This document shows, one piece after another, positions 5,747 through 57,580 of a stretch of 64,000 nt of DNA. Both the position numbers and the translations under genes were made by a program. The first letter of the stretch is position 1; the number at the start of each line of letters is the position of its first letter. The DNA is from a phage: NCBI GenBank assembly GCA_026188615.1, contig GCA_026188615.1_4525.1. One strand, written 5' to 3'. The notes under the pieces are model-generated. The model did no database searches and was not told where the DNA came from. It saw only the letters and a list, made by a program, of their open reading frames with translations.

Positions 5747-6121
5747 TTAAAAACGTAATTTAGATATATCTGCGTTGATTTCGTTTTGGTTCGCGTCATA
5801 TGCAATTAAACGAACCGCTTTAGACGGGTCATTCAATGCATAGAAATGATGGAACATTGCTCGAACGATATCACCATTTACGAGTTCTACCTGGATAGGA
5901 GAACCTTTTTCGAGTTGGAAATGTTCATAAGCTTTGATGGTTCGTAGATAATCAAGTTTTTGATTTCCAGCTCCAACTATTTGTACGATACGTTTGCCCA
6001 TGTTTTCCATACGAGATACAATAGTTTTAGGAGCAAGAATAACGTAGGTTGCCAGCGGAGAAACTACTTCAACAGTTGTGTTTTCGGTGATTGCAGTAAA
6101 AATTGCTTGAGACATATTCAT
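5747..6121 (-). CDS. hypothetical protein
   Basis: 124-aa ORF, RBS AGAGGA, early promoter and terminator upstream. Confidence 0.55.
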   Translation of the reverse strand: MNMSQAIFTAITENTTVEVVSPLATYVILAPKTIVSRMENMGKRIVQIVGAGNQKLDYLRTIKAYEHFQLEKGSPIQVELVNGDIVRAMFHHFYALNDPSKAVRLIAYDANQNEINADISKLRF

Positions 6122-9267: not shown

Positions 9268-9816
9268 TTAACGAGCCCATTTGATAATTTCTGTAATCAA
9301 ATAATTACGTTCGCTTGCATTAAATCCTATAACTTTGTTAGCACCATCATGATTAAGTAATTGATACGTTTGGATTTTGTTATGAATTGCAAACTCTTCA
9401 AAATGTGAAATGGCTGTATTAAAACCGAATGAAGACAAAGTAATAAGGTCGTCTTCAAAACTTTCAGTCATTTCGTTACGTGTTAAAATAATTGTGAACA
9501 CATCATGGTTTTGGCAAAGACGAATATAATCCTGTTCATAAACGTCAAGAACCGAGTCCGCATCTTGTCGAATACGTCCATAAACCCAGTTACTAATATA
9601 TCCACGGTCTAACAGATAAATCTTAGTAGGGTCTAAATAATTCAACATCGTTTCGAAACAGCCAACTTCATTTCGAGACTTAACATCGAAACGTCCATCA
9701 ACTGTTCGTTTAGGGAAATCAATCTTTACATATCTTTCACTAATTTCCATTATGTCATTAATGAAAGTTGTTTTACCGGCATTATCCGGGCCATCTACTA
9801 AAATAATTTTAGCCAT
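9268..9816 (-). CDS. P-loop kinase-like protein (thymidylate-kinase-like Walker A)
   Basis: 182 aa; IILVDGPDNAGKTT and DRGYIS motifs; occupies the T4 beta-gt locus together with 9818..10717. Confidence 0.6.
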   Translation of the reverse strand: MAKIILVDGPDNAGKTTFINDIMEISERYVKIDFPKRTVDGRFDVKSRNEVGCFETMLNYLDPTKIYLLDRGYISNWVYGRIRQDADSVLDVYEQDYIRLCQNHDVFTIILTRNEMTESFEDDLITLSSFGFNTAISHFEEFAIHNKIQTYQLLNHDGANKVIGFNASERNYLITEIIKWAR

Positions 9817-30661: not shown

Positions 30662-32475
30662 TGATGCTTAACCCTATGCATGATTTCTTTATTTTTGCCT
30701 AGATTAAATCCGCGTTCGTTCGGATTTCCCAAGTAACCGCAGGTCCTTCTTATAGTGTTCATCTTTTTAGGATCAGTTTCTCCGCAAACTGAACAAACAA
30801 ATCCGTTTTCAGTAGGAGTCATTTCATGGGTACTTCCGCATGTAAAACACTTATCTACTGGCATATTAACACCAAAATAATCTAAATGTTGTGCAGCATA
30901 ATCCCAGACAGCCTCAAGTCCCTTTAAATTGTTTTTCATATCTGGAAGTTCAACATAAGAAATGTGACCACCTGACGCAATGAAATGATATGGCGCTTCA
31001 CGAGAAATCTTTTCAAACGGAGTAATATTTTCTTCTACTGAAACATGGAAACTATTAGTGTACCAGCCTTTATCAGTGACATCCTTTACACTTCCATATT
31101 TTTCCGTGTCGAGTTTACAGAAACGATAACACAAGTTTTCAGCAGGAGTAGAATACAAGCTAAAAGCAAAACCGGTTCTTTCGGTCCACTGTTTAAGATG
31201 AGCATTCATCTTAGTTAAAATTTCTTGTCCAATATCACGACCGACAAGAATATTCAATTCGTGAATACCAATGTATCCTAGGGACACTGAACTTCTACCG
31301 TTTTTAAATAACTCAATTATATCGTCATCAGGTTTAAGACGGACCCCGAATGCACCTTCTTGGTAAAGAATAGGAGCAACAGTCGCTTTAACCCCTTTTA
31401 AGGAACTAATTCTACACATCAAAGCTTCAAAACACAAATCCATTCGTTCATCGAACAATTCGGCAAATTTCTGTTCATTGAACTGTGTTCCAATATAAGA
31501 ATCTAATGCGATACGAGGAAGATTCAGTGTTACAACACCGAGATTATTACGTCCATCAAGAATTTCATTACCGGTCGAATCTTTCCATACGCTCAAGAAA
31601 CTACGGCAACCCATTGGAGAAACAGGAACTGAAGAACCGGTAATAGCTTTATTATTCTTAACCGAAATAATATCAGGATACATTCTTTTGCTTGCGCACT
31701 CTAGAGCAAGCTGCTTAATATCATAGTTCGGATCATCTTTATAAAGATTAACACCTTCTTCAACAAACATAACAAGCTTAGGGAAAATAGGAGTTATTCC
31801 ATCACGACCAAGACCTTTAATGCGGTTTTTAAGAATTGCCTTCTGAATCATTCGTTCAGTCCAATCGGTTCCCGTACCAAATGTAATTGTTACAAAAGGC
31901 GTTTGTCCGTTTGAACTAAAGAGAGTATTTACTTCATATTCATAAGCTTGGAATGCGTCATAGACATCTTTTTCTGTTTTGGATTGAGCATAATTCAACG
32001 CATCAGCGATTTGCCATTTTTCTGCATCTTCAACATGTTTAGCGTATGTGCGTTTAACATAAGGAGAAAGAACTTTATCGACATTCGCAAATGTAGTTCC
32101 GCCATACTGGTGTGAAGCAACTTGTGCGGTAATTTGTGCCATAATTGCAGTAGCAACGCCAATAGATTTAGGCGTTTCAATTTGAGCATTGCCTAATTTA
32201 AATCCATTCTCAAGCATCCCCTTTAAATCGACTAAACAGCAATTAGTAAATGGAAGAGCAGGAGAATAATCAATATCATGCATGTGAATGATTCCGCTTT
32301 CATGCGCATTCATAATAAAAGACGGGACCATATTTTTGGCAATGTGCTTAGACACAATACCAGCCATAAGGTCCCGTTGAGTTGGAAAAACACGAGAATC
32401 TTTATTAGCATTCTCGTTTAAAAGGTCTTTATTAGTTTTATGAATTAATCCTTCAATTTCTTTTTCAATTTTCAT
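30658..32475 (-). CDS. nrdD: anaerobic ribonucleoside-triphosphate reductase NrdD
   Basis: 605 aa uninterrupted; C-terminal Zn site CFTCGS...CSVCG and glycyl-radical motif RTCGYLG. Confidence 0.95.
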   Translation of the reverse strand: MKIEKEIEGLIHKTNKDLLNENANKDSRVFPTQRDLMAGIVSKHIAKNMVPSFIMNAHESGIIHMHDIDYSPALPFTNCCLVDLKGMLENGFKLGNAQIETPKSIGVATAIMAQITAQVASHQYGGTTFANVDKVLSPYVKRTYAKHVEDAEKWQIADALNYAQSKTEKDVYDAFQAYEYEVNTLFSSNGQTPFVTITFGTGTDWTERMIQKAILKNRIKGLGRDGITPIFPKLVMFVEEGVNLYKDDPNYDIKQLALECASKRMYPDIISVKNNKAITGSSVPVSPMGCRSFLSVWKDSTGNEILDGRNNLGVVTLNLPRIALDSYIGTQFNEQKFAELFDERMDLCFEALMCRISSLKGVKATVAPILYQEGAFGVRLKPDDDIIELFKNGRSSVSLGYIGIHELNILVGRDIGQEILTKMNAHLKQWTERTGFAFSLYSTPAENLCYRFCKLDTEKYGSVKDVTDKGWYTNSFHVSVEENITPFEKISREAPYHFIASGGHISYVELPDMKNNLKGLEAVWDYAAQHLDYFGVNMPVDKCFTCGSTHEMTPTENGFVCSVCGETDPKKMNTIRRTCGYLGNPNERGFNLGKNKEIMHRVKHQ

Positions 32476-32945
32476 TTTAAACTCTTTCTAAGCTGCTTTT
32501 TGAATGAAGCTATTAATTGTGTTTTAGTGTCAGATTCATTATATTTAAATCCTCTTTGAAGCATCTCAGTCATCATTTCCTCTTTACCTAGTCTTGAGAA
32601 CTCTTTAGTTTTGTCTGGAACAAAATTAGGATGGATATTATTATCAGAATAATCTTGTTTCAAATAAGCAAGAAGAGCTTCAAGCCATTCGAGGTAATCA
32701 ACGTTTTGACCTTTAAGACCAGAACGGTTGAACTTATGCTTCATTTGACCTTCTGCTGCGTTGCACAGGTTACATAGTAAACCACGAACCTTACCTGCTT
32801 TTGGCCCGTTTAATTCATGGTCGTGGTCAAGATGGTTACCTTGAACATCAGGGTCTAATTCACGGTGGCAAATAGGACACTTACCGTTCTGTGCATCATA
32901 AAATTTTTGTTTTTCTTCTTTATATTTTGCGCCTGATAATAACAT
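32472..32945 (-). CDS. 49: endonuclease VII gp49 (Holliday junction resolvase)
   Basis: 157 aa; KFYDAQNGKCPICxREL...HLDHDHELNGPKAGKVRGLLCNLCNAAEG matches T4 gp49. Confidence 0.95.
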   Translation of the reverse strand: MLLSGAKYKEEKQKFYDAQNGKCPICHRELDPDVQGNHLDHDHELNGPKAGKVRGLLCNLCNAAEGQMKHKFNRSGLKGQNVDYLEWLEALLAYLKQDYSDNNIHPNFVPDKTKEFSRLGKEEMMTEMLQRGFKYNESDTKTQLIASFKKQLRKSLK

Positions 32946-32980
32946 GATAAACCCTTACCTTAAATAGATAAGGGTATTTA

Positions 32981-33544
32981 TTAACTTAAACGTCTTTCTA
33001 AATATTCAATGTATTCTGCGGCTGCTTGCATCAGGTTACCTTCATAGCCGTCGTTATTTTCTTGTCCGGCTAATTTAGCTAATGCATAAGAAATTCGTTC
33101 ACCTTCGAATTCACCAAGTTTACTACCTAGCACATCCGCAATATCAGCCGAATCAATTTCTTCGAGTTCATCTATTGAATGGGATTCCCAGAAGCACCAA
33201 AGAGAAGTATCACGGTCATAGATGCAAAGTTTCTCACCTGTGTTCAACATCACTTCGTTAATGCCATGGTCGCCATAACCATCTTCGGTAGTAGTACCAA
33301 TTACCTTGATGATTGTTCCTTTCTTTAATTCAGGAAACTTGACTTGTAGTTCTTCATCTTCTTTAACAATCTTGAACCATTTACCGCGAGTTTCAGAAAT
33401 ATTCATATCAATATTCTCTATAAAAGTTACGATGAGAACGTTTAGCTTTGCGAAGCTGACGTTTAGTAGGACGAACTGTAAATGGTTGTCCAGAGAAAAA
33501 ATTAGGATCGGTTTTAATAAGCAAATACCAATCATGTTTGCCAT
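32981..33544 (-). CDS. hypothetical protein (start uncertain)
   Basis: 187-aa ORF; likely starts at internal Met MNISETRGKWFK. Confidence 0.45.
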   Translation of the reverse strand: MANMIGICLLKPILIFSLDNHLQFVLLNVSFAKLNVLIVTFIENIDMNISETRGKWFKIVKEDEELQVKFPELKKGTIIKVIGTTTEDGYGDHGINEVMLNTGEKLCIYDRDTSLWCFWESHSIDELEEIDSADIADVLGSKLGEFEGERISYALAKLAGQENNDGYEGNLMQAAAEYIEYLERRLS

Positions 33545-33578
33545 TTTTTAATAAACGGTACAATAATTTAACTTGCAT
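33408..33578 (-). CDS. hypothetical small basic protein (C-terminal VRPTKRQ motif)
   Basis: Internal start MQVKLLYRLLK...FTVRPTKRQLRKAKRSHRNFYREY; paralog of 4965..5177. Confidence 0.4.
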   Translation of the reverse strand: MQVKLLYRLLKNGKHDWYLLIKTDPNFFSGQPFTVRPTKRQLRKAKRSHRNFYREY

Positions 33579-33706
33579 AATAATCTCTTCCCATTTCCAT
33601 ATCAATTAATTCATTTATTGAAGGTTCATCATAACATGGTTCTTCGTCGTTGTAAACCGTTTCGACGTCTGGCTCGACAGTCTCCCATCGAGCAGAATAC
33701 CACGGT

Positions 33707-33916
33707 TTAACCCCGGAGTTTATTGAGCTCTTCATAATCAATCCAGGATTCTAGCCCAGATGGCAAATCAGATTCAATTTCCCAAAGAAGCTCTTCAATT
33801 TTCTGAAGACGATCTAATTCTTCAACAGGAATAGTAACCATTGATGGAGCTCTTGCTGCACTAATATCGTAAATCATATTTACCCCAGTTTGACCACACA
33901 ATCGCCATATTTCCAC
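33707..33916 (-). CDS. hypothetical protein
   Basis: 69-aa ORF. Confidence 0.45.
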   Translation of the reverse strand: MEIWRLCGQTGVNMIYDISAARAPSMVTIPVEELDRLQKIEELLWEIESDLPSGLESWIDYEELNKLRG

Positions 33917-34095
33917 TTAGAAATAGACTTTTCGCCATTAGAATAATAAACTTCGAGTTTAGCACGATTATTTTTAATTTGAATAACCTTGGCTGTCATC
34001 AAAGTTCCATACCCATAGTAAACTGCAACTTCATCACCTACATATACCGCGTTTCCACGGTAGTCATGGATATAATCAGTTCCTTTAAGCATCAT
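33880..34095 (-). CDS. hypothetical protein
   Basis: 71-aa ORF. Confidence 0.45.
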   Translation of the reverse strand: MMLKGTDYIHDYRGNAVYVGDEVAVYYGYGTLMTAKVIQIKNNRAKLEVYYSNGEKSISKWKYGDCVVKLG

Positions 34096-34355
34096 TTAAA
34101 ATATTCCCGCAGTTGATCAAATCCACCAATGTGACTTCCGTCAGGAGCAAACACTTGAGGCATAGTCAATCCAACTTGTGATTTACGTCCAAGCTTAACC
34201 AGAAGCTCAGCAATTTTTTCTTCATCGAATACACCTTTTTCTGGCATAACATTAATGAATTCAAATGGCTGTTTCTTAACAGTCAGCAATCGTTTAGCAT
34301 TATCACAATAAATGCATTTATGAATAGTAGAGTCATACCCGTACACTTTAAACAT
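34092..34355 (-). CDS. nrdC: thioredoxin/glutaredoxin NrdC
   Basis: Internal ATG MFKVYGYDSxIHKCxYCDNAKRLLTVKKQPFEFIN...PDGSHIGGFDQLREYFK matches T4 NrdC; AGGA RBS. Confidence 0.93.
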   Translation of the reverse strand: MFKVYGYDSTIHKCIYCDNAKRLLTVKKQPFEFINVMPEKGVFDEEKIAELLVKLGRKSQVGLTMPQVFAPDGSHIGGFDQLREYFK

Positions 34356-34761
34356 TATTTTTCCTTTCATCGATTAAATATGCAACGCCAAATACAATAC
34401 ATGTAATAAAACCTGTGATACAGATAGAAACCAACAACACTGTACCAAAGAACCAAATCAGGTTATCTTTAGTAGTTTGTTTGATATCCATCTCACGAAT
34501 TTCTATAGCTATCGTATCACCTTTATTCAGAAGCGTATAAAACGAAGGTGATACACGCCTGTCAAAAACTCGTCCTTGTTCATCTTTATAAACTGCAATA
34601 AATTCTAATTTAGAATATTTTCCTGTAGATTGTCCTGAGATTAATTCCACTACCTCCACAGGAATTACTTTAGTTTCCATGTAAGTATTCTGGCTGTTCC
34701 AAATGAATGGAATAATGGCAAAAACTAAAGCTGCGATAAAACAACGAAGGCTATATCTCAT
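34348..34761 (-). CDS. membrane protein
   Basis: 137-aa ORF, N- and C-terminal TM segments. Confidence 0.5.
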   Translation of the reverse strand: MRYSLRCFIAALVFAIIPFIWNSQNTYMETKVIPVEVVELISGQSTGKYSKLEFIAVYKDEQGRVFDRRVSPSFYTLLNKGDTIAIEIREMDIKQTTKDNLIWFFGTVLLVSICITGFITCIVFGVAYLIDERKNNV

Positions 34762-35066
34762 TATAATGTTCTCTCAAATTTGTGGAAGCATTTACGGCAT
34801 TTCAATTTCAAGTTATCACTGGTCCAGTTAACCAGTTGGACTTGGATAGTTCCACATTCCGGACACGGATGTTTTGCTGCCGATTTGGCAGCATTTTCAC
34901 GTCGTTCAACCATTTTCATTATTTCGTTCCATGCTGGAGGAACGAACTCTTCTTCACCATGAATTTTATCTCGCTGAACAAATTCAATCTTTGAACTATC
35001 ATCAATAAACTTAACTAAGCCATGATTAGTGCTCATATCAATATCCTCTAGAAGACGTAGGTTCAT
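34761..35066 (-). CDS. zinc-ribbon protein
   Basis: 101 aa; CPECG...CRKC. Confidence 0.5.
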   Translation of the reverse strand: MNLRLLEDIDMSTNHGLVKFIDDSSKIEFVQRDKIHGEEEFVPPAWNEIMKMVERRENAAKSAAKHPCPECGTIQVQLVNWTSDNLKLKCRKCFHKFERTL

Positions 35067-36013
35067 TATAACACCTCAATGGCATTTCGTAAACCATCCG
35101 CTTTCGCGTTCAGAGCTTTTAACGATTTAGTCTGTTCTTTAATCTGGGCTTCGACTTCTTTAAGACGAGATTTGAGATATTCACGTTCTTCGCTCAAGTT
35201 GTCAACTTTTTCTACTTTAGGTTCTTTAATAGTCTTAAGTTTATACTCGTTAGGGTTCTTCAACTTAATTTGAATGCGAGAACTGAATAACATCGAACCG
35301 TTATCTTCGGTTTCGTCATACATTTCTACTACGTCCATGATTCTTAACATCATGCGAAGTTTATAAGACAGCGAACGAACGGTTTTATTGTGCTTCTTAA
35401 TTTCTTCAGCTTTCATGGTGCCGAGATTACGTGAGTAGTAATAAGGAACCTGGATATCAATTGACAATGATGCGTTACCATTACCTGTTGGTTTGAATAC
35501 TGCAGTAACCCAATCTTTAACATGAACTTTATTTGTACGATCATCGCCACCAGTGAATAATTTACGAGAATGTTTAAAAAGCATATTCACTTGGTTATTG
35601 AATTCACAAGCAAATTTATCAGCAAATTTAGTTTCAGGAATGGTAGATAACCAATCAGCCAAATGAGTCTTTTTAACATCATTAACAATAGTGAATTCAA
35701 CCAAATCGGTTTTAGATGTCACAGATTTAATAAAGCTCGGCTTCATAAAGTTTTTAATGTTATCGCGAGCTACAGTAGAAGATAATAAACGAGAACGTTT
35801 GAACCATTGAAGCAGCGTCCCTAATGAATGAGAATATGCATTTTGAGTATCTTTACAGATATGATTTTCTTGGCCTGTGTATGTAAGAAAATCACGAAGA
35901 ATACTATAAACCACACCTTTATGTGGAACATCAGTCCAAGCACCAGTAGCACGTTGAGCGTGAGCGTTAGCGATAAGACCGGCAAAGTATTCAATGTAAT
36001 GTGAACGTGTCAT
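35066..36013 (-). CDS. hypothetical protein with C-terminal coiled coil
   Basis: 315-aa ORF; strong early promoter upstream. Confidence 0.6.
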   Translation of the reverse strand: MTRSHYIEYFAGLIANAHAQRATGAWTDVPHKGVVYSILRDFLTYTGQENHICKDTQNAYSHSLGTLLQWFKRSRLLSSTVARDNIKNFMKPSFIKSVTSKTDLVEFTIVNDVKKTHLADWLSTIPETKFADKFACEFNNQVNMLFKHSRKLFTGGDDRTNKVHVKDWVTAVFKPTGNGNASLSIDIQVPYYYSRNLGTMKAEEIKKHNKTVRSLSYKLRMMLRIMDVVEMYDETEDNGSMLFSSRIQIKLKNPNEYKLKTIKEPKVEKVDNLSEEREYLKSRLKEVEAQIKEQTKSLKALNAKADGLRNAIEVL

Positions 36014-36041
36014 AATATTTTCCTCTCGTTAAGATAGGTTC

Positions 36042-36071
36042 ATTATACTCCAACCATCCTTGGTTGTAAAC
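36042..36071 (-). promoter_or_regulatory. early promoter (GTTTAC-N18-TATAAT)
   Basis: Best consensus match in window; upstream of ORF 35066..36013. Confidence 0.7.
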
Positions 36072-36075
36072 TGAT

Positions 36076-37035
36076 TTATGATTTTAATGCATTCATTGCG
36101 TTAAAAAGTTTAGAGTACTGCAACTGGAGATTGGTCACCACCTGTTGAGCATCACGAAGCTTAGCTTGTGCTTTGTCAAGTTCAACGGACAGTTGGTCTA
36201 CAGTAGCCTTGATTTGGTTGTAATGATAATCTTCGGCCGGAAGAAGGTCATTAGAAACATTTAGTTTTACTGCCGACAGTTTGCACACATTTGGCAAACC
36301 TTTAAACATACCAGATTGTGCTGGAGAATATGCGCCTAGAACCTCTGCATTACCGACTGGTGTTGCTGTAATATTGCCTTCAAACAATGCATTTTCCTTT
36401 TTAAGATTTTGATAGTATTCAGAGTCTTTGTGCCACCATGGCGCAGGAACCTTTTTACCAATAGATACACGAGCTTGGATAGCGATATGGCCCTTATTCT
36501 TGATAGGGTCGATAATATTAAGCTCACGAGAATAAATTGCTTTAATCTGGTGGATATTATCACCTAAAACTTCCAACGCTTGGTGAAATACACGAGCAAC
36601 GTTATCATTCTTAGGTTTATACGTAAGAGTGAACTCATTCTCACTGATAACCATGATTTCCAACTTATCATAAGTATATTTCAAATGTTTCATGTTAATT
36701 GCTTGAGGACGAATACGAGAAGCAATGGCCATCAGATTGTTAAGGTTATTCCGGAACTGCTTAGCGAAATATTGTCCTTCACCGCCAATACAAAAATTAC
36801 GAAGTTTCTGTTTGGCTAATAAACGGCTGAACTCACCATTTTTAATGAACTCTTTAACGGGTGTGTTAGTAACGCATTCAAATTGAGTAAACTTACGAGA
36901 AGTAATCCCATAATATGAACAGACTTCCTCAATCTCTTCAGGAGTCTTTACAGGCATACGGATAGGATTAGGTCCTGGAGTATATGCGTTCGAGGTAAAT
37001 TCTTTGATAAGTTCTTTACGTGTAATAAAAGCCAT
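36076..37035 (-). CDS. hypothetical protein with C-terminal coiled coil
   Basis: 319-aa ORF; own promoter. Confidence 0.6.
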   Translation of the reverse strand: MAFITRKELIKEFTSNAYTPGPNPIRMPVKTPEEIEEVCSYYGITSRKFTQFECVTNTPVKEFIKNGEFSRLLAKQKLRNFCIGGEGQYFAKQFRNNLNNLMAIASRIRPQAINMKHLKYTYDKLEIMVISENEFTLTYKPKNDNVARVFHQALEVLGDNIHQIKAIYSRELNIIDPIKNKGHIAIQARVSIGKKVPAPWWHKDSEYYQNLKKENALFEGNITATPVGNAEVLGAYSPAQSGMFKGLPNVCKLSAVKLNVSNDLLPAEDYHYNQIKATVDQLSVELDKAQAKLRDAQQVVTNLQLQYSKLFNAMNALKS

Positions 37036-37061
37036 TTTATATTCCTCATGTTGAAAAATTT

Positions 37062-37091
37062 ATTATACTCCAACCATCCTTGGTTGTACAT
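37062..37091 (-). promoter_or_regulatory. early-type promoter (TGTACA -35 variant, TATAAT -10)
   Basis: Near-duplicate of 36042..36071 with 1-nt change in -35. Confidence 0.5.
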
Positions 37092-38086
37092 CATTCCTTA
37101 AGAAGTTTTACTACCTGAATAAGATTAGCTCGTTCTGTTTTATTTTTACCATTTAAGCCTGCTAATCGTGAGATTTCATCGTCAGTCTGTTGAATAGTTA
37201 CATTAAGTTCGTTAATCAAAGCTTCAAAGTATTTGATTTGCTCAGCATGTTTTGATTCAAATTTCTGAACAGGAATAACGTCTTGGTTCAGTTCATCAAT
37301 AAGGTCTTTAAGAGCATCTTCTTGGTTGATATCATATTCAACTTCTTTTATTTCTTCAACGAGCTCGTCTTTATATCTAACGTCTTTTAGTCCTGGTGCT
37401 GGTCCTGAAATCTCTTCTTTAAGAGTACAAACATATCCAATACGGTATCCAATGCCGTCTCGCTTGATATCAACTTCGTCGATAAATCCACAATGTTTAA
37501 GACCAGAGCCGATTAGGTCAAAATATCCTTGACGTCGTCCTTCAAACGTTACACGAACTACTAAGACAGTTTTACCTGCAACCTTTTGAAGCTCACATTT
37601 ATAAAAGTCAGTTGAACCTGAATAACGTGGATGAGTTTTAAAGTTCATCTGACGATCTAGGCCCATTTGTAAGCGTGCTGTTACGGCCATAAAACGTGTT
37701 TGGTTCTCGTTAAGATGAGCAACAATCCATTTCAAAGGCATTTTACACTGTTCACGACCGAACAAATCAGTACGTCCTAGATTACGCAGGATGTTGTTAG
37801 AGTTAATCATCGACAGAACGTTAAGTTTATTCAGCGCGCTGAAGATTCCGTCAGCCATTGATTTTCCATAACCTTTACACGTTTTAATAAGTGCTCGCGG
37901 TAGATTAGTATAGATTTCAGATGGCATATGAAAATCAAATTTTCTAACCAGTAATTGATGAACTTGGATAGCAATTTGCTCATAATTAAGTGCTCTGCGA
38001 TCGTTATGGTCTTTAAACCACACTTTAATCTGTGAAGCACATAAACCGTTAATTTCATGTTTTACCGCATCAGATGTAATGCTCAT
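37091..38086 (-). CDS. hypothetical protein with C-terminal coiled coil
   Basis: 331-aa ORF. Confidence 0.6.
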   Translation of the reverse strand: MSITSDAVKHEINGLCASQIKVWFKDHNDRRALNYEQIAIQVHQLLVRKFDFHMPSEIYTNLPRALIKTCKGYGKSMADGIFSALNKLNVLSMINSNNILRNLGRTDLFGREQCKMPLKWIVAHLNENQTRFMAVTARLQMGLDRQMNFKTHPRYSGSTDFYKCELQKVAGKTVLVVRVTFEGRRQGYFDLIGSGLKHCGFIDEVDIKRDGIGYRIGYVCTLKEEISGPAPGLKDVRYKDELVEEIKEVEYDINQEDALKDLIDELNQDVIPVQKFESKHAEQIKYFEALINELNVTIQQTDDEISRLAGLNGKNKTERANLIQVVKLLKE

Positions 38087-38148
38087 AACTATTTCCTCAG
38101 ATTGAATTGGAACTCAAAACCATTATAACCCGTCCTTGGGTAAAGCGT

Positions 38149-38673
38149 TTATGCGTGAACCGTCTTTAAACGTTCTTCAAATTTCCGAAGAAGTGCTTGG
38201 CGTTCTGCTCGTTGTTCCGTATAAGTTTTAATACGACCTGAAGTGAGGGCGTATTGTTCGTTTACCGATTCCTTCATAAAATCAGGAATCTCACGACAAG
38301 CTTTTATTTCGTCGAACTTGTCAATAACTGCTTGTTGTTCTGCAATCAGATTGTTGTAGTATTCGATATCTGATTTAATGTTTTGGATATCAGACTCAGT
38401 AGGCATGTTACGTGCTTTACGTTTTGCCTGATACTCTGCGTTTGTAGCACGACTCCAGTGAAGAGTACGTTTTTTGTTAGTGTTTTTATAGACTTCCAAA
38501 ATCCCAACTGAATCGATGATAACAATCCAGTTCCAACGGCTTTTGTAAATCTCTCCTCCAGAAACGGTAATCTCGTTACCGCATGCTACTTCATTAAAGA
38601 ACTTGCTTTGTGCTTCAGATTTAAATTTACCGTCGTTATAATTTACCAGGTTGAAAATATCTTTAGCGTTCAT
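38149..38673 (-). CDS. hypothetical protein
   Basis: 174-aa ORF; early promoter upstream. Confidence 0.55.
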   Translation of the reverse strand: MNAKDIFNLVNYNDGKFKSEAQSKFFNEVACGNEITVSGGEIYKSRWNWIVIIDSVGILEVYKNTNKKRTLHWSRATNAEYQAKRKARNMPTESDIQNIKSDIEYYNNLIAEQQAVIDKFDEIKACREIPDFMKESVNEQYALTSGRIKTYTEQRAERQALLRKFEERLKTVHA

Positions 38674-38700
38674 GTTTTACCTCCAGTAGTTGATAGGTCT

Positions 38701-38730
38701 ATAGTAACATGTCCATAGACCTGTGTAAAC
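38701..38730 (-). promoter_or_regulatory. early-type promoter
   Basis: GTTTAC-N18-TACTAT upstream of ORF 38149..38673. Confidence 0.5.
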
Positions 38731-38732
38731 AA

Positions 38733-39020
38733 CTAAAAGAAACTTTTTTCGGTATTTTTTCCACTGAACCAAACAGACTTCGGGATTTTTTGTAATTTTT
38801 CAGATTTAAGTTTCTCTTTTTGTTCTTTCTTATATACACCCTTGTCGTACTGGAGCATCTCTATGGCATTCTTTTGTAGACGATCTAAGGTAATTAAGGC
38901 TTTAGTTTTTCCTTTCAAGGAAGAGTCCTGGCGAACCTCCTCGCTATATTGCATCGTAGAACTAACCATACGATGAGCATACAGTTCGACTGCGGCTTTA
39001 ATTTTTTGCATAAAATCCAT
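38733..39020 (-). CDS. hypothetical protein
   Basis: 95-aa ORF. Confidence 0.45.
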   Translation of the reverse strand: MDFMQKIKAAVELYAHRMVSSTMQYSEEVRQDSSLKGKTKALITLDRLQKNAIEMLQYDKGVYKKEQKEKLKSEKLQKIPKSVWFSGKNTEKSFF

Positions 39021-39158
39021 AACATATCCTCTTTGATTTGTACATCATTATTTTTAAATATTTCTATGCCCTCAGTAGGTTCCTGGTGTCCTTCTTTGAG
39101 GTAAGCCATATGATTATTCATCTTTATGGCTTTTGTTACCTAAGAATTTCCTATAAGC

Positions 39159-40160
39159 TTATTTCAGTAAAGTAACTTCCGAGATTTCCTCCCAACCATC
39201 TTTATCAGTTGAAATAAAATCTGCTACATAAAGAGCCGTACGTAATGATACATTGCGAAGACGAGATACGTTAGCCTTCATCCAGGACAATGCTTTATAC
39301 GTTTCTGCATCAGTCAGACCACGTTTCTGCATCATGTCAGTAGATAATATTACATCTTCAACTCGAACCATAATCTCTTCATTAGAGTGTACTCCAAGGT
39401 CGAGATACACTGAACGAGATACTAAAGCTTGAAGGTGTGGAGCAAGTTTCGAACCGCGTTCTAACTCTTTATCGATATCAACGTTTGTAATGAAAACGAT
39501 AGTACCTTCAAACTCAAATTCTTTATCAATACCCTTATCATCGAGATAAGATGACGCAGTGCTCCAACAAACTTTGCGTTTATCTCCAGTATCTAATGCT
39601 GCTTTAAGAAGATTCAAGATGTCCATATCTGAGAATACGTCAACGTCGTCGATTAAGAGAACGCTGTCTGCATCACGGTTGAGCCAAAGTTGTTCGTAAA
39701 GGCCAATACCGGAGATTTTACCATTAATGCTTTTGTATTTGATGAAACCATTATCATTAGCATTATTAAGTGCTTTATCCAGAGAATACGTCTTACCAAT
39801 ACCGGCTGCACCTGAAATAATGAGTGAACGAATTTTGCCATCGATAATGCCATTCGTCATCATGTTCATTACTTTAAAGCGTTTGTTGATACGAGTTTTC
39901 ATATCTTCAGTGCTTTCAACAACTGCAACTGGTGACGTCTCAACTCCTTCCATTACGATGTCTGATTTGAAGACCCATACTCCACGTTCAGAACCATCAA
40001 TCATAACGAAAATTTTACCGTCACCTAAGTGGGAACATTCAGGATTAAGCTTTGCCGGGAACCAGGTCTTTGTGGCAACATAAGAACCAGAGATTTCGTT
40101 ATTACGATAGATACCTTTTTTGATTTGAACGTTGAACATTTTATTCTCCAATTTACTCAT
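39159..40160 (-). CDS. AAA+ ATPase-like protein
   Basis: 333 aa; Walker A ISGAAGIGKTY, Walker B VLLIDDVD; unassigned ~110-aa N-terminal domain. Confidence 0.65.
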   Translation of the reverse strand: MSKLENKMFNVQIKKGIYRNNEISGSYVATKTWFPAKLNPECSHLGDGKIFVMIDGSERGVWVFKSDIVMEGVETSPVAVVESTEDMKTRINKRFKVMNMMTNGIIDGKIRSLIISGAAGIGKTYSLDKALNNANDNGFIKYKSINGKISGIGLYEQLWLNRDADSVLLIDDVDVFSDMDILNLLKAALDTGDKRKVCWSTASSYLDDKGIDKEFEFEGTIVFITNVDIDKELERGSKLAPHLQALVSRSVYLDLGVHSNEEIMVRVEDVILSTDMMQKRGLTDAETYKALSWMKANVSRLRNVSLRTALYVADFISTDKDGWEEISEVTLLK

Positions 40161-40177
40161 TTCGTTTCGATAGGTCT

Positions 40178-40206
40178 ATAATAACATATCCTAAAAGCAT
40201 GTACAC
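40178..40206 (-). promoter_or_regulatory. early-type promoter
   Basis: GTGTAC-N17-TATTAT upstream of AAA+ ATPase gene. Confidence 0.45.
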
Positions 40207-40236
40207 TACTTTTTAAAAATATTTTAACCCCCTAAA

Positions 40237-40252
40237 GGGACCCGAAGGTCCC
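40237..40252 (-). other. stem-loop GGGACC-CGAA-GGTCCC after secreted-protein gene
   Basis: 6-bp GC stem with tetraloop; not followed by a clean U tract. Confidence 0.4.
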
Positions 40253-40257
40253 CACAT

Positions 40258-40539
40258 TTACTTATCACACTTAGCAACATAATTAGGCATATCACAGAAT
40301 ACGGAGCGAGTAACTACTCGACCCTTTGACCATGCTTCAGTTGCTTGTCCGGCCGTGCTATTAATATAGTTTGATTTAATGTTCTCAATACCCTGAGAAT
40401 GTGATGCATTTACCGAACCATTGGAAGGCCCAGAAGACTGGTTACCACCAGCTCCTGCACTACCGCTGGCTGCACCCGTGGTAGCACCGACAGAGAATGC
40501 CATCATTACTGCGAATAAACCAATTACTAATTTTTTCAT
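40258..40539 (-). CDS. secreted Gly/Ser-rich small protein
   Basis: 93 aa; signal peptide MKKLVIGLFAVMMAFSVGA; two C-terminal Cys. Confidence 0.5.
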   Translation of the reverse strand: MKKLVIGLFAVMMAFSVGATTGAASGSAGAGGNQSSGPSNGSVNASHSQGIENIKSNYINSTAGQATEAWSKGRVVTRSVFCDMPNYVAKCDK

Positions 40540-40570
40540 ATTTACCTCAAGTTAATGGTTATTTATCTAT

Positions 40571-41560
40571 TTATTTATAGTAAGAATTATGATTTTCGAG
40601 ATAGACTTGCTCAAGGAAATCATCCCAGAAACTCATATCTACTTTTTGTTGCATACCATTCTTGGCAGCTTGTTCAGATGCTTGTTCAACTTGGTCAACG
40701 ATATCTTCTAGGAATTCTTGTACAGTTTTAAACGTATGTTTGCCAAGCTTAACATCGAGAATAAATGGAGCATCCTGAAGTGGGTAAACCAGGTCGCCGG
40801 TTTTGTAAATTTCCAATAATTGAAGTCCACCACGACATGCATGACTCAATGCTTTCCAGTCAATACCTTCGTTGGCTTCTGCCTTACGAGCACGTTCACC
40901 ATAGTTCTCTTCCAGTTTAACCAGGATGGCATTGAACTCTTTATTGGTTAACGTATCTTGGAATTTACGGTCTAACAGATTATAGAATGTTTGCTTACCT
41001 GTTTTCTCGTTTTCGGTTTCAACCCACGAAGCAAATTCACCTACAGGCAGAACATTCTTCATATGTGATAAACGAATTACTGCACCATTATCAAAGTATT
41101 GTCCCCATTCATTAGAACGTTTAAGGGCTTGTCGAAGAACAGCCAGTCGAGAACCCTTGACACCATATTTAGAAGCTTGCTTACGGACATACCCTAAATA
41201 AGATTTCATGTTAGTGGTATAGAAACGAGACCTGTTATCTTGAATATACTTCCATACATCAGGCAAATCAGATTTAACTACTAGACTTTGTGGAGTGTGA
41301 AGCATATCTAATGCGACGGTTTCACCATCCGCAGCTAGTTTAAAGAAATATTTGAGACTATATAACTCATGGTCCACGTCGTCTTTTGTGTTCTTAGAAG
41401 ATGTGTTATTCGTGTTCTTGCTCATATGTTCTTTAACGTTACCGGTCAAGATATCACGAGCATGAGGGACATAAATTTCTTTAAAATCAACGTCAGATTC
41501 TGGGGTAGACGTTCCATAAAGGTGGCTACCAAAGTAGCCTTTCATAATTGTTTTCATCAT
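40571..41560 (-). CDS. nucleotidyltransferase-fold protein (minimal NTase motif)
   Basis: 329 aa; GSHLYGTSTPESDVD fits G[SG]x9-13Dx[DE]. Confidence 0.6.
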   Translation of the reverse strand: MMKTIMKGYFGSHLYGTSTPESDVDFKEIYVPHARDILTGNVKEHMSKNTNNTSSKNTKDDVDHELYSLKYFFKLAADGETVALDMLHTPQSLVVKSDLPDVWKYIQDNRSRFYTTNMKSYLGYVRKQASKYGVKGSRLAVLRQALKRSNEWGQYFDNGAVIRLSHMKNVLPVGEFASWVETENEKTGKQTFYNLLDRKFQDTLTNKEFNAILVKLEENYGERARKAEANEGIDWKALSHACRGGLQLLEIYKTGDLVYPLQDAPFILDVKLGKHTFKTVQEFLEDIVDQVEQASEQAAKNGMQQKVDMSFWDDFLEQVYLENHNSYYK

Positions 41561-42030
41561 TTAGCCTTATATTCAAGAGTAGGACAGACTTTTTCTTTAC
41601 GAGCTTTAAGGTATTCGCCTATTAATGATTTCTTACGTTCAATAGGCTCAAGTCCATTTTTAATTCGTTCTTGGTTTTGCGCAATGAGCTCAATTTCTTT
41701 ATAATACTTCCGCTCTCTATATAAGTCGATTAGCCACGGTATGCCTAATACTAAAACTATAGAAATACCAACACATAATGCAATGAATAAAACACCTACA
41801 CCAATTGAGGCCGGAACCAATGACCATAAACTACTAAAGACAAAGAATTTAGTTAAAATTTCATGGCCAACGATTGTGGCCGCTGCTAAAATCGCAAATC
41901 CAATAATCGAAACAAACAATACCGGGAGAAACGTTTTCCAAAAATAAGCACACAACGTTTTCGGACGATTCCATGTACTATTAAACGCGGCATAAATTTT
42001 AAAGTGCCAAGAGTTTTCATTGATAATCAT
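41557..42030 (-). CDS. membrane protein
   Basis: 157-aa ORF, multiple TM segments. Confidence 0.5.
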   Translation of the reverse strand: MIINENSWHFKIYAAFNSTWNRPKTLCAYFWKTFLPVLFVSIIGFAILAAATIVGHEILTKFFVFSSLWSLVPASIGVGVLFIALCVGISIVLVLGIPWLIDLYRERKYYKEIELIAQNQERIKNGLEPIERKKSLIGEYLKARKEKVCPTLEYKAK

Positions 42031-42039
42031 AATAATTCC

Positions 42040-42570
42040 TTATTTCAAAGTTGGGATAATAGAATCGAGATAAGCTTTAAGAGCAACTGCTTCATCTTTG
42101 TCTAATGTAACGATATGTTGACGAAGGTCATCAATTTGGCGAATAACTACAACATCGCCATCTTCATAAGAAGGATTAACGCCTAGGACCGTTGTATAGT
42201 CAGGGCGGTCCTGATTTGTAATAAAAGCATTACGGCATTTAGCCCATTGAAGTTTAGCCTTTTTGGCCGTTTCAGATTCCATTAATTCTTTCACCTTAGT
42301 GACAAACGTTTTCCAATTATTAATAGAAAGGCATTCATCTTCTGTTTCGATATTAACCCCACTATAAAGACCGTGATAAAAACGAACTTGAAGGTCTTCA
42401 CCGATGTTAATTACAGATGCATGGCCGGGCGGATTGAGTTTCAAAATCTTGTCCAGTTCCATAGGAAGAATAGTAACAGAATCATCTTCTTGTGTCAGAA
42501 CATACACATAACCACGTTTTTCGATACATAAATCACCAAACAACTCGGTTGTTTCAATTACGGTTTTCAT
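42040..42570 (-). CDS. hypothetical protein
   Basis: Track ORF starts on TTG; ATG MKTVIETT at 42570 with RBS. Confidence 0.5.
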   Translation of the reverse strand: MKTVIETTELFGDLCIEKRGYVYVLTQEDDSVTILPMELDKILKLNPPGHASVINIGEDLQVRFYHGLYSGVNIETEDECLSINNWKTFVTKVKELMESETAKKAKLQWAKCRNAFITNQDRPDYTTVLGVNPSYEDGDVVVIRQIDDLRQHIVTLDKDEAVALKAYLDSIIPTLK

Positions 42571-42571
42571 A

Positions 42572-42751
42572 TTATTCACCAATTAAAGTTTCAACAAAAT
42601 TCACCAAATCATTCAGACAAGCATCAACCTGTTTTTCATAAAAGTCTTCGTTATCATTTACTGCATGATAAGCTACATCATTCAAATCTGAATCGGCTTC
42701 ACGTAAGTTACGGATAAGTTCCATCAATTTATTAGCTTGTTCACGGGTCAT
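42572..42751 (-). CDS. small ORF (59 aa), not in ORF track
   Basis: MTREQANKLMELIRNLREADSDLNDVAYHAV...; ATGA overlap with upstream 36-aa ORF. Confidence 0.35.
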   Translation of the reverse strand: MTREQANKLMELIRNLREADSDLNDVAYHAVNDNEDFYEKQVDACLNDLVNFVETLIGE

Positions 42752-42858
42752 TTTACCATACTCGTTTCAATAAGATTCACTACGCCGTTTACCATGTTAT
42801 AAGTAAACATCGGATAATTGTATTGTACTACAACATAAGCGATAAGCAAAAGTTTCAT
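42748..42858 (-). CDS. small ORF (36 aa), not in ORF track
   Basis: MKLLLIAYVVVQYNYPMF...; just downstream of an early promoter. Confidence 0.3.
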   Translation of the reverse strand: MKLLLIAYVVVQYNYPMFTYNMVNGVVNLIETSMVK

Positions 42859-42886
42859 TTTGTTCTCCGTTCGTTTTGGTAGGACT

Positions 42887-42916
42887 ACTATAACATAATC
42901 CTACCAAGATGTAAAC
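42887..42916 (-). promoter_or_regulatory. early-type promoter
   Basis: GTTTAC-N18-TATAGT with flanking dyad TAGGACT/AGTCCTA. Confidence 0.55.
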
Positions 42917-43149
42917 TACCGATTGTGTTTTAAATGTTGATAAAGTTCTTCAACTTGTTTATGGTCCAAAACAATTAGGTCATTTTCTTGGCGAAGATAA
43001 ATCCATCCCTTATCACCAGGGCCATTTTTACAAAACATCACCACCGTATCATCATCTTCAGCGCTTTCAGGTAAAAGTTCAAGTACACCGTCTTCAGATT
43101 TTCCAGTATAATCGTAAAGCATAATATCCTCACATAATCTCGTTAACAT
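42916..43149 (-). CDS. hypothetical protein
   Basis: 77-aa ORF. Confidence 0.45.
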   Translation of the reverse strand: MLTRLCEDIMLYDYTGKSEDGVLELLPESAEDDDTVVMFCKNGPGDKGWIYLRQENDLIVLDHKQVEELYQHLKHNR

Positions 43150-43309
43150 ACATTTGCAATTCGGTGTGGGTGTCAGCCATCTTTTTCATTGCCTTATTGA
43201 TATCAATATCGCCATCTTCGCACCCATGGGCATTCTCCCAATCAGATACGGCATTAGCGTACTCTTCAATCAAAAACATTAACTTAGAAATTTTTTCTTT
43301 ACGTGACAT
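43130..43309 (-). CDS. hypothetical protein
   Basis: Internal ATG MSRKEK; track ORF extends into the promoter. Confidence 0.4.
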   Translation of the reverse strand: MSRKEKISKLMFLIEEYANAVSDWENAHGCEDGDIDINKAMKKMADTHTELQMYVNEIM

Positions 43310-43336
43310 AACGTTCTCCTCTAGTAAGTAAAGACT

Positions 43337-43365
43337 ACTATAACACAACCTGCGGAGAAGTAAAC
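43337..43365 (-). promoter_or_regulatory. early-type promoter
   Basis: GTTTAC-N17-TATAGT immediately after terminator 43376..43404. Confidence 0.55.
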
Positions 43366-43375
43366 TGATAGATAC

Positions 43376-43404
43376 AAAAAAGCCCCAACCATAAGGAAGG
43401 GGCT
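43376..43404 (-). terminator. rho-independent terminator
   Basis: AGCCCC...GGGGCT stem with internal GNRA-like loop, then T5 on minus strand; after rI. Confidence 0.65.
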
Positions 43405-43410
43405 AGTAAA

Positions 43411-43713
43411 TTAGATAGATGTAGGCTCTAATTTTATTTTCATGAACTCGGCAAATTGTTTGGCAGTTTTTATGCCTTGTTCATGACATTCAAATGCATC
43501 ATCACAGGGGCTATTTTTGTAATGCTTTGCCATATACTTATAGAATTTTTCAGAGTTCTCGACATTTTGAATTTCAAACAAAGTGTATACGTTTTTAATC
43601 CCTGATTCCATAAAGTTATCAAAGTATGGGTCAACATATGCAGTACCAACGATAGGAGTTGTTGCTGCAAAAAACCCAAGCATCGCCATGACAGCTATCG
43701 CTCTTAAGGCCAT
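43411..43713 (-). CDS. rI: lysis inhibition regulator RI
   Basis: 100 aa; signal anchor then VDPYFDNFMESGIKNVYTLFE...PCDDAFEC matches T4 RI. Confidence 0.85.
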   Translation of the reverse strand: MALRAIAVMAMLGFFAATTPIVGTAYVDPYFDNFMESGIKNVYTLFEIQNVENSEKFYKYMAKHYKNSPCDDAFECHEQGIKTAKQFAEFMKIKLEPTSI

Positions 43714-43725
43714 ATAGGCCTCCTG

Positions 43726-43938
43726 TTAATTTTGGCCAGTATTTATTTTTCGCCTTTGGACGGCCTTAACATCTGCGAGGTATTTTTCCAGCTTGCGCTT
43801 GCGTGTATAATCAGCTTTAGAACCAGTTTGACGAATATCCTCGTTTAAATGAGAAATAGAATGTCCTAATTCTCTTCGGATTTCGTCCAATTGGGTTACA
43901 GTAAGATTACGAAGTTGTCTTTCGTTTAATTGCTGCAT
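43726..43938 (-). CDS. hypothetical protein
   Basis: 70-aa ORF; late-promoter-like TATAAATA upstream. Confidence 0.5.
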
Positions 43939-43962
43939 ATATACCTCTTGGTTAGATATTAG

Positions 43963-43970
43963 TATTTATA
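43963..43970 (-). promoter_or_regulatory. late-promoter-like TATAAATA
   Basis: Exact TATAAATA on minus strand 24 nt upstream of ORF 43726..43938. Confidence 0.45.
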
Positions 43971-44547
43971 ACAACCCTGTCAAATCATTCCAATGCTTCC
44001 GGCATAATGACACGTATCTATCAGTATCACCAATTTCAATTTGACTGCCATCTGTAATTGGAAGTCCGTCTTCCGTGACTCTAGCTACCATTGTGGCTTT
44101 TTTACCGCAATGACAGACACCTTTAAGTTCAACAAGCTTATCAGCAATAGCCATTAATGCTTGAGAACCTTCAAATAGATTACCTTTAAAATCTGTTCGT
44201 AGTCCGTATGCCATTACCGGCACATTGTATACGTCAACAATACGACTAAGTTGATACACCTTTTCAGTAGTTAAGAACTGAGCTTCGTCAACAAATACAC
44301 AGTGAATATCCTTTTGTGCTGCAGCCCATTTATAAAATTCAAAGATATCCATGTCTTTTGTAATTATATTGGCATCCTGACGAATACCAATACGGGAGAC
44401 TATTTCACCTTTTGAATCGCGAGTATCAATAGCCGGTTTAAGAACTAATACACCCATGCCACGTTCTTTATAGTTATGTGCGGCAGTAAGTAATGAAGCG
44501 GACTTACCAGCGTTCATAGCGGCATAGGTAAAAATTAAACTAGCCAT
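43966..44547 (-). CDS. tk: thymidine kinase
   Basis: 193 aa; Walker A YAAMNAGKSASLL, C-terminal Zn site CHCGKKA...CRKH. Confidence 0.93.
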   Translation of the reverse strand: MASLIFTYAAMNAGKSASLLTAAHNYKERGMGVLVLKPAIDTRDSKGEIVSRIGIRQDANIITKDMDIFEFYKWAAAQKDIHCVFVDEAQFLTTEKVYQLSRIVDVYNVPVMAYGLRTDFKGNLFEGSQALMAIADKLVELKGVCHCGKKATMVARVTEDGLPITDGSQIEIGDTDRYVSLCRKHWNDLTGLL

Positions 44548-57512: not shown

Positions 57513-57542
57513 TTTGTTTACTCCTCTGTAGTTGATAAGTCT

Positions 57543-57571
57543 ATAGTATCACCATCCTTGGTGCTTGTACA
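57543..57571 (-). promoter_or_regulatory. early-type promoter
   Basis: TGTACA-N17-TACTAT upstream of small ORF 57348..57512. Confidence 0.4.
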
Positions 57572-57580
57572 TCGTTATTT

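Follow-up and report, generated by a model that had tools for sequence, protein, structure and literature searches.

Three consecutive genes at positions 35066-38086 of a 64,000-nucleotide phage sequence (GenBank assembly GCA_026188615.1, contig GCA_026188615.1_4525.1), hereafter called the window, raise the question of whether adjacent open reading frames (ORFs) of nearly equal size, all ending in a heptad-rich coiled coil, descend from one gene, and what their products do for the phage. A first reading, made from the sequence only and without database searches, had taken them for a set of diversified paralogs belonging to a T4-variable region. The ORFs that it described, of 315, 319, and 331 amino acids (aa) and here named W315, W319, and W331, are all present and all on the minus strand. 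Our comparisons of sequence profiles indicate that they are likely to be ancient, strongly diverged paralogs of one T-even gene family, which we call the NrdC.3/4/5/6 superfamily. The kinship of W315 and W319 is well supported by these comparisons, and that of W331 less so; a common ancestry of all three genes is, in our judgment, quite probable.

Identity and probable kinship of the three genes

The evidence for kinship came from profile comparisons that were bridged by relatives in other T-even phages. For bridging we used T4, two BASEL phages, and 18 IMG/VR loci, the latter with the conserved neighbor NrdC.10 as anchor, and the ORFs of about 300 to 390 aa in the interval fell into seven groups: NrdC.3, NrdC.4, NrdC.5, NrdC.6, and three single-copy groups found in Enterobacter/Kosakonia phages (CX; phrog_26858), in the Citrobacter phage Moon group (CY), and in the Salmonella phage S16 group (CZ). 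With hhalign, NrdC.3 matched NrdC.4 at 98% probability (E value, 1e-12), the joined NrdC.3+4 profile matched the NrdC.5 family at 86% (E value, 4.9e-6; 175 columns), and the NrdC.3+4+5 profile matched NrdC.6+CX at 92.7% (E value, 4.1e-7). Removal of the C-terminal 70 aa left the first match at 98% (E value, 2.7e-13) and the second at 82% (E value, 1.1e-5). Reversed templates scored 13 to 17, the highest scores in 80 column shuffles were 24.5 and 20.7, where the real comparisons scored 43.8 and 36.1, and 20 unrelated families from the same loci gave a maximum score of 23 and a maximum probability of 3.6%. Independent models were cross-connected through CX as well: phrog_26858 also matched phrog_2351 (8.6e-8), DUF7235 above its cutoff, and phrog_2257 (5e-6; residues 151-336), and T4 NrdC.4 matched phrog_26858 over residues 64-316.

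The shared positions are found in three places. A first helix with the pattern F.K...LS.......L.NF occupies residues 69-90 of W315, 60-82 of W319, and 82-104 of W331, and a second, F..F......L....[AS][RK]L, occupies residues 131-153, 89-110, and 118-141, respectively. A tail motif, roughly [QE]R.KL..A[ILMV]..L[KR], is shared by position among all seven groups. The similarity thus exceeds coiled-coil composition, because it takes in two helices of the globular part as well as the terminal motif.

Several results weigh against this conclusion. Pairwise BLASTP found no similarity among W315, W319, and W331, and, taken literally, this is at that level the outcome that the sequence-only reading had named as speaking against its own proposal. 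Profiles built from the shallow alignments of the three proteins reached at most 1% probability with hhalign, and family-versus-family comparisons without bridging families gave nonsignificant probabilities of 1 to 7%. The profiles were thin (effective number of sequences, 1.2 to 2.7) and were compared without a secondary-structure term, and removal of the C-terminal 70 aa reduced the match of NrdC.3+4+5 to NrdC.6+CX to 45% (E value, 2.2e-4), which makes the link to W331 borderline. The structure predictions proposed along with the sequence-only reading did not demonstrate a relationship, since the two AlphaFold 2 (AF2) models, made from shallow alignments, had predicted local distance difference test (pLDDT) values of only 41.9 and 46.8 and were unusable for establishing a common fold. 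Foldseek searches of BFVD with these low-pLDDT models returned only sequence relatives and noise at template modeling (TM) scores of 0.16 to 0.28.

Such results, and the placement of the three proteins in separate families in both PHROGs and Pfam, would suit a view of them as unrelated ORFans that are alike only in size, in position, and in having an amphipathic helix of a generic kind at the C terminus, the profile similarities being artifacts of composition or of alignment merging. We regard this as improbable. The bridged profiles gave probabilities of 86 to 93%, with the alignment in the globular part and with scores far above those of the reversed, column-shuffled, and decoy-family controls; moreover, the direct matches, low as they scored, all fell on these two helices and agreed with one another in register. 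The terminal motif common to the seven groups, the cross-matches of independent PHROG and Pfam models via phrog_26858, and the single-copy relatives that hold the same position in other Tevenvirinae also argue against unrelated ORFans. Three Acinetobacter phage proteins of similar length (Foldseek E values, 3e-3 to 2e-2) were not counted as relatives because their TM scores were below 0.3, and NrdC.8 (W174) was rejected as a truncated member, its family presumably being among the 20 decoys, all of which remained below 4% probability.

Comparison with the T4 interval identified the three genes individually. The window derives from a T4-type phage, a Mosigvirus (RB69 group), and its positions 34000-40200 are 95 to 98% identical to those of phages moskry, vB_EcoM_SA79RD, and PhAPEC2. 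The genes lie in the nrdC-nrdC.11 interval, flanked by nrdC.2 and nrdC.8, and are orthologues of the named T4 genes nrdC.3, nrdC.5, and nrdC.6; the duplications appear to be ancient. The idea of a set of diversified paralogs is thus right in the main and supported by the bridged profiles, though not by the pairwise alignment suggested along with it, and the idea of a local expansion is not supported. A recent duplication was likewise rejected, as a 30-nucleotide (nt) promoter segment was the sole notable DNA repeat between the genes.

W315 is 56% identical to T4 NrdC.3, matches T4 NrdC.4 with an E value of 8e-5, and is covered over residues 1-315 by the hidden Markov model (HMM) of phrog_1435 (E value, 3.8e-103). 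Its homologue was found in 654 phage records, and a precomputed PF26897 hit was present on every homologue. T4 has a fourth gene of similar size, nrdC.4, belonging to the same PHROG as nrdC.3; no counterpart of NrdC.4 is present in the window. When 1.84e9 representative proteins were searched exhaustively by HMMER with the profile of W315, only five were found, which points to a narrow family; one of these, of 336 aa (E value, 3.9e-6), is taken as NrdC.4-like from its length and span only, and NrdC.5 and NrdC.6 were not reached by this search. W319 matches DUF7235 with 402.6 bits (cutoff, 30; E value, 1.7e-120) over all 307 profile positions, and T4 NrdC.5 matches the same model with 420.6 bits (E value, 5.3e-126), with 23% identity between the two proteins over 330 aa. 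The W319 allele type occurs in 133 phage records, all at least 80% identical, and is confined to Mosigvirus, none being found in Tequatrovirus by tblastn at an E value of <1e-3. W331 is matched over residues 1-331 by phrog_2257 (E value, 4.1e-127), and its homologues carry PF26899; a homologue occurs in 742 phage records, mostly at 30 to 34% identity. Its identity to T4 NrdC.6 is 29%.

The families themselves are already known, T4 named but largely uncharacterized, and W315, W319, and W331 are their Mosigvirus members. The tandem paralogs NrdC.3 and NrdC.4 of T4 already share one PHROG, so that paralogy inside the array is implicit in databases, whereas the extension to NrdC.5 and NrdC.6 is absent from PHROGs and from the Pfam assignments examined. 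What we add is modest: the linking of NrdC.3/4, NrdC.5, and NrdC.6 as one superfamily with a conserved coiled-coil tail, the assignment of the three genes to an emerging anti-defense island, and a spacer hairpin that covaries and contains a recombination junction.

In many GenBank phage records, these three are among seven to nine genes in a row that bear the label "thioredoxin," and these labels are the only reason to consider them redox proteins of the thioredoxin or glutaredoxin type. None of the three proteins contains a CxxC motif and none has a thioredoxin or glutaredoxin match in Pfam, unlike the true NrdC of the window, which does match. The names nrdC.1 to nrdC.11 mean merely "ORF downstream of nrdC," and it is from them that the label was propagated. 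A thioredoxin function is rejected on these sequence criteria, the probability of a redox role being close to nil; by the same criteria the labels are wrong, and the analysis corrects a widespread misannotation.

Protein architecture, divergence, and copy number

The sequence-only reading had noted coiled coils at the C termini, and a crude heptad score of our own (best 35-aa window, 200 shuffles) placed the best window of each protein there. For W315 (residues 268-302) and W319 (residues 269-303), none of the 200 shuffles scored as well (P < 0.005), and the signal of W331 (residues 273-307) was weaker (P = 0.035). The AF2 model of W319 shows a single long helix at residues 266-318 with pLDDT values of 59 to 77, the sole region at or above 59, and in the model of W331 the tail consists of four shorter helices between residues 253 and 330. 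Word-indexed homologue searches for all three proteins had yielded only close relatives for the alignments. The two models, at their low pLDDT, agree only in the order of elements: helices at the N terminus come first, then a beta-beta(-beta)-alpha-beta-beta unit and a linker without structure, and the C-terminal helix or helices close the chain. The putative architecture of each protein begins with an N-terminal region that is helical and basic; it includes the two conserved helices and continues with a small beta-alpha-beta region, a hypervariable disordered linker, and a coiled-coil tail.

Compared with T4, the three proteins are only 23 to 56% identical, while their neighbors retain 73 to 91% (gp49, 89%; NrdC, 91%; NrdC.8, 73%; NrdC.10, 77.5%; NrdC.11, 78%). 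The C-terminal helix is the best-conserved part in each Mosigvirus/Tequatrovirus pair, with 22 to 60% identity elsewhere: 68% in W315 versus T4 NrdC.3 (52 to 60% elsewhere), 43% in W319 versus T4 NrdC.5 (22 to 27% in the body), and 50% in W331 versus Bas39 NrdC.6 (29 to 38% in the body). The linker is hypervariable and rich in insertions and deletions even within Mosigviruses, and the acidic linker of W331 (residues 223-252) is longer and does not occur in Tequatrovirus. The N-terminal domains are all basic, with net charges of +10 to +13 and isoelectric points (pI) of 9.4 to 9.7. Two annotated proteins depart from the conserved tail: the reference T4 NrdC.6 (NC_000866; L002 8067-8894), of 275 aa, has a tail unlike that of the 295-aa form of other T-even phages, and RB69 NrdC.5 (300 aa) has an aberrant tail too. 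Both look like the result of frameshifts or sequencing errors that removed the conserved coiled-coil end.

The number of family members varies among phages. Tequatroviruses carry four plus nrdC.7, the window phage carries three, one IMG/VR contig (L007) has NrdC.4, NrdC.5, and NrdC.6 and lacks NrdC.3, and the BASEL phage Bas43 has NrdC.3 only. More distant Tevenvirinae have a single gene of 332 to 393 aa at the same position, with recognizable motif 1 and tail motifs. In a further T-even contig from IMG/VR (L011 14400-15432), NrdC.4 is split into two ORFs of 193 and 158 aa, which suggests pseudogenization of a family member. In contigs of these more distant Tevenvirinae (L018 14155-15231, L019 14781-15842, L020 14690-15688, and L022 13109-14233), the one ORF at that position, of 332 to 374 aa, has a motif 1-like SGILRRVKANNRLRHY and a coiled-coil tail containing QLKRQMETL or QQRKFKQILEAL; these are probably additional single-copy relatives below HMMER significance.

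Among the neighboring genes, the NrdC.10 homologue (333 aa; 39159-40160, minus strand) contrasts with the three genes in its high conservation (77.5% to T4); its P-loop/AAA-type NTPase signature, which weakly matches models of STAND-type NTPases and clamp loaders, precedes a possible helix-turn-helix. A gene for an NrdC.7-like membrane protein (34348-34761, minus strand), 41% identical to T4 NrdC.7, adjoins nrdC, whereas T4 nrdC.7 stands between nrdC.6 and nrdC.8. Homologues of T4 nrdC.1, 49.2, and 49.3 were not found in positions 31000-44500 of the window.

Promoters and the spacer hairpin

Each of the three genes is preceded by a GAGG-type Shine-Dalgarno sequence and a promoter of its own, with 55 to 62 nt between genes, and the stop codon of W315 overlaps the start of nrdC.2 by 1 nt. 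The near-duplicate promoters that had been noticed before two of the genes are borne out by an exact 25-nt duplication upstream of W315 and W319 (36044-36068 and 37064-37088), which occurs only twice in the window (0 expected by chance) and extends to a 30-nt segment of 97% identity spanning the spacer between the -35 and -10 elements. The promoter of W331 is a degenerate relative of this repeat and is homologous to the T4 nrdC.7 promoter, which W331 has inherited here; a T4 middle promoter is annotated at this site in the record of a near-identical phage. A fourth promoter of the same type lies elsewhere in the window (Table 1).

The repeat contains CCAAGGATGG within a hairpin, N4-CA-AGGA-TG-N4, that occupies the promoter spacer, with the -10 element on one side and the -35 element or MotA box on the other. 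Its stem has 5 to 6 bp, its loop is AGGA, and its core is a constant CAAGGA[TC]G, while the outer stem varies yet remains complementary (CAAC/GTTG, ATAC/GTAT, GCCA/TGGT, AGC/GCT, CATC/GATG, and CAC/GTG). Among copies from the window phage, T4, and related contigs, four of the six pairs changed on both sides, and 88.9% of hairpin cells were paired, compared with 61% after shuffling and 20 to 43% when the partner was slid. All nine copies fold alike, at -4.9 to -8.2 kcal/mol. The covariation is tempered by the choice of the set by its conserved core and by its size of only nine distinct sequences. The hairpin may serve as a site of recombination in DNA, as an element of the RNA when transcripts read through it, or as a protein-binding site.

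A rearrangement was found in this element. The region upstream of nrdC.3 in Bas43 (TadeuszReichstein) is a chimera, with the T4 nrdC.7 promoter on the left and the T4 nrdC.3 promoter on the right; the crossover lies inside CCAAGGATGG, and nrdC.4 to nrdC.7 are absent. This single junction in the hairpin repeat fits cassette shuffling, and the copy number of the array (one to four copies plus nrdC.7) would change through homologous recombination between repeated promoter cassettes. A separate 38-nt repeat (35033-35070 and 36010-36047; 74% identical) shares TATAATGAACCTA, which upstream of W315 forms the -10 box and leader. At the other copy the ATG of TATAATG is the nrdC.2 start codon, overlapping the W315 stop codon; this repeat may be what is left of an earlier junction between cassettes.

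Table 1. Positions of the genes, coiled-coil segments, promoters, and hairpins in the window, and of the recombination junction in Bas43
Feature	Position	Strand	Description
W315	35066-36013	minus	315 aa; T4 NrdC.3 orthologue; phrog_1435, PF26897
W319	36076-37035	minus	319 aa; DUF7235 (PF23882)/T4 NrdC.5 family; phrog_2351
W331	37091-38086	minus	331 aa; T4 NrdC.6 orthologue; phrog_2257, PF26899
W315 C-terminal heptad/coiled-coil segment	35069-35212	minus	aa 268-315; ends ...AKADGLRNAIEVL
W319 C-terminal coiled-coil helix	36079-36240	minus	aa 266-319; ends ...QYSKLFNAMNALKS
W331 C-terminal helical segment	37094-37330	minus	aa 253-331; weaker heptads; ends ...TERANLIQVVKLLKE
W315 early-type promoter	36042-36070	minus	-35 TTTACA (36070-36065), 17-nt spacer, -10 TATAAT (36047-36042); 11/12 match
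W315 promoter hairpin	36051-36066	minus	CAACCA-AGGA-TGGTTG in spacer; minimum free energy (MFE), -6.9 kcal/mol
W319 early-type promoter	37062-37090	minus	TGTACA-17-TATAAT; sigma70/T4-early-like; 10/12 match
W319 promoter hairpin	37071-37086	minus	Same hairpin as W315 copy
W331 middle-type promoter	38122-38146	minus	MotA-box-like GCTTTA (38146-38141), TATAAT (38127-38122)
W331 promoter hairpin, degenerate	38128-38141	minus	ACCC-AAGGAC-GGGT; MFE, -4.9 kcal/mol
Fourth promoter of hairpin type	~57535-57575	minus	Hairpin ~57549-57564
W174	38149-38673	minus	T4 NrdC.8 orthologue, 73% identity; context gene outside the paralog family
True NrdC	34092-34370		92 aa; Pfam Glutaredoxin model match
Bas43 junction	L003 6925-7010		Versus L002 (T4) 9290-9375 and 5846-5930

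Possible roles and comparison with known systems

Direct searches said little about function: Pfam and NCBIfam held nothing informative on the three proteins, no PADLOC defense-system HMM matched them at an E value of <0.1, and profile searches of PDB sequences with the three families gave nothing below an E value of 0.1. The literature was more informative. A T4 deletion mutant regains its plating on cells with the sirtuin defense gene dsr1 when T4 nrdC.5 is expressed (Srikant et al. 2022; PMC9391042), and a preprint (10.1101/2025.11.20.689424) describes T4 nrdC.1 as an inhibitor of Septu and bas37_0203 as an inhibitor of Druantia III. The latter is the NrdC.8 orthologue by position and length (528 nt) only. 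By analogy with these genes, the three would lie in an apparent, emerging anti-defense island, with W174/NrdC.8 as neighbor and the nrdC.5 counterpart inside. The same data class T4 nrdC.3 to nrdC.6 and Bas37 0198 to 0201 as nonessential, the T4 genes thus being dispensable in laboratory hosts.

We propose the three proteins as inhibitors of host immunity because T4 nrdC.5 counters Dsr1 and because nrdC.1 and the apparent nrdC.8 orthologue inhibit other defenses. The reading that we favor, by a modest degree, is that of diverged paralogs acting as early, nonessential, oligomeric host-immunity inhibitors with diverged specificities. Each gene, having its own early or middle promoter, would be expressed soon after infection, and its product may act as a stoichiometric inhibitor of antiphage immunity. 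The conserved coiled coil would oligomerize the protein or dock it to a common partner, and the fast-evolving N-terminal domain would determine which host protein is bound, presumably by direct contact. Among the three, W319 would correspond in Mosigvirus to T4 NrdC.5, the protein that counteracts Dsr1, a defense protein of the SIR2 family, and W315 and W331 would have targets other than Dsr1. Together, the three genes probably form a host-range toolkit, and an ordinary one for T-even phages. That at least one of them is an anti-defense factor is a little on the probable side; that all three are is somewhat doubtful.

Some observations speak against this proposal. W319 is so distant from T4 NrdC.5, at 23% identity, that the anti-Dsr1 activity may not be conserved, and the basic N-terminal domains are also compatible with nucleic acid binding. 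A coiled-coil dimer joined to a basic domain is a common layout of nucleic acid-binding proteins. The family may thus be real without its members being immune inhibitors as a class: they could be dimeric nucleic acid-binding or early host-takeover proteins directed at host DNA, RNA, or transcription, with an effect of NrdC.5 on Dsr1 that is indirect or specific to that member. The strongly basic charge, unlike that of acidic DNA-mimic inhibitors, and the early promoters would suit such proteins, as would the HIDEN-SEQ supplementary tables, which, in the part available, list no significant conditional phenotype for T4 nrdC.3, nrdC.4, or nrdC.6. However, no match to DNA- or RNA-binding families was found in Pfam, NCBIfam, or PDB sequences, and the genes are nonessential, extremely fast evolving, and variable in copy number, with neighbors that include experimentally supported anti-defense genes. 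Because of these last properties, the pattern is that of an arms race rather than of core takeover, and we consider a general nucleic acid-binding or takeover role rather unlikely.

The immune-inhibitor reading can be extended to the organization of the locus, with a low probability attached. The nrdC.3-nrdC.6 interval could be a cassette array comparable to an integron, in which each unit consists of a hairpin-bearing promoter and a modular immune-inhibitor gene. The shared C-terminal coiled coil would then be a handle for coassembly or for docking to a common partner, the N-terminal domains would each neutralize a different defense, and the hairpin would be a recombination or regulatory site through which units are gained, lost, or swapped.

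If the whole family should prove to be anti-defense, W315/NrdC.3, NrdC.4, and W331/NrdC.6 would become candidate inhibitors whose host targets could be found with existing defense-system panels. Homologues of each of NrdC.3, NrdC.4, NrdC.5, and NrdC.6 occur in about 550 to 740 sequenced T-even phage records. With its coiled-coil tail conserved, its basic domain evolving fast, and its linker hypervariable, the shared architecture also lends itself to a simple domain-swap design for specificity determinants. The 23% identity of NrdC.5 between Mosigvirus and Tequatrovirus, next to neighbors at 73 to 91%, predicts that the two overcome differing Dsr1 variants, a matter of consequence for host range and for the selection of therapeutic phages. 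As for Dsr1 itself, its sensor domain has been reported to recognize phage major capsid proteins (PMC13581612).

The closest comparisons are with T4 itself. W319 and T4 NrdC.5 share their position in the array, length class, C-terminal coiled coil, a tail of the form ...KL.NA.NAL, and an early expression type, yet at their low identity the Mosigvirus allele type forms a separate clade. W331 resembles T4 NrdC.6 in its end-to-end match to phrog_2257, at 29 to 34% identity to Tequatrovirus NrdC.6. A more distant likeness, by analogy only, is to DSAD1 of Bacillus phages, which inhibits the sirtuin defense DSR2 (PMC10973363, PMC11087589) and is thus a phage protein that neutralizes a SIR2-domain NADase defense protein by direct binding; it differs in its origin and in its target, which is DSR2 and not Dsr1, and no sequence relation to it was detected, although no search aimed at it was made.

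For the promoters, the nearest known system is that of the promoter-early stem-loops (PeSLs), a cassette-shuffling model for T4-type phages (Arbiol et al. 2010; PMC2839356). As in that model, sigma70-like promoters of the early or middle type, each with a stem-loop, recur between nonessential genes of a hyperplastic region, and the junction of an insertion or deletion (Bas43 versus T4; one junction) lies inside the repeated element, as shuffling predicts. In published PeSLs, a stem-loop that terminates transcription sits immediately before the promoter (Comeau et al. 2014; PMC4122927). In contrast, the hairpin described here lies inside the spacer between the -35 and -10 elements and has a short stem of 5 to 6 bp and no U-tract or T-run, and no terminator-like sites were found in the intergenic regions of the three genes. 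Overall, the PeSL model of gene shuffling in the hyperplastic regions of T4-type phages is refined by a spacer hairpin that covaries and holds a recombination junction.

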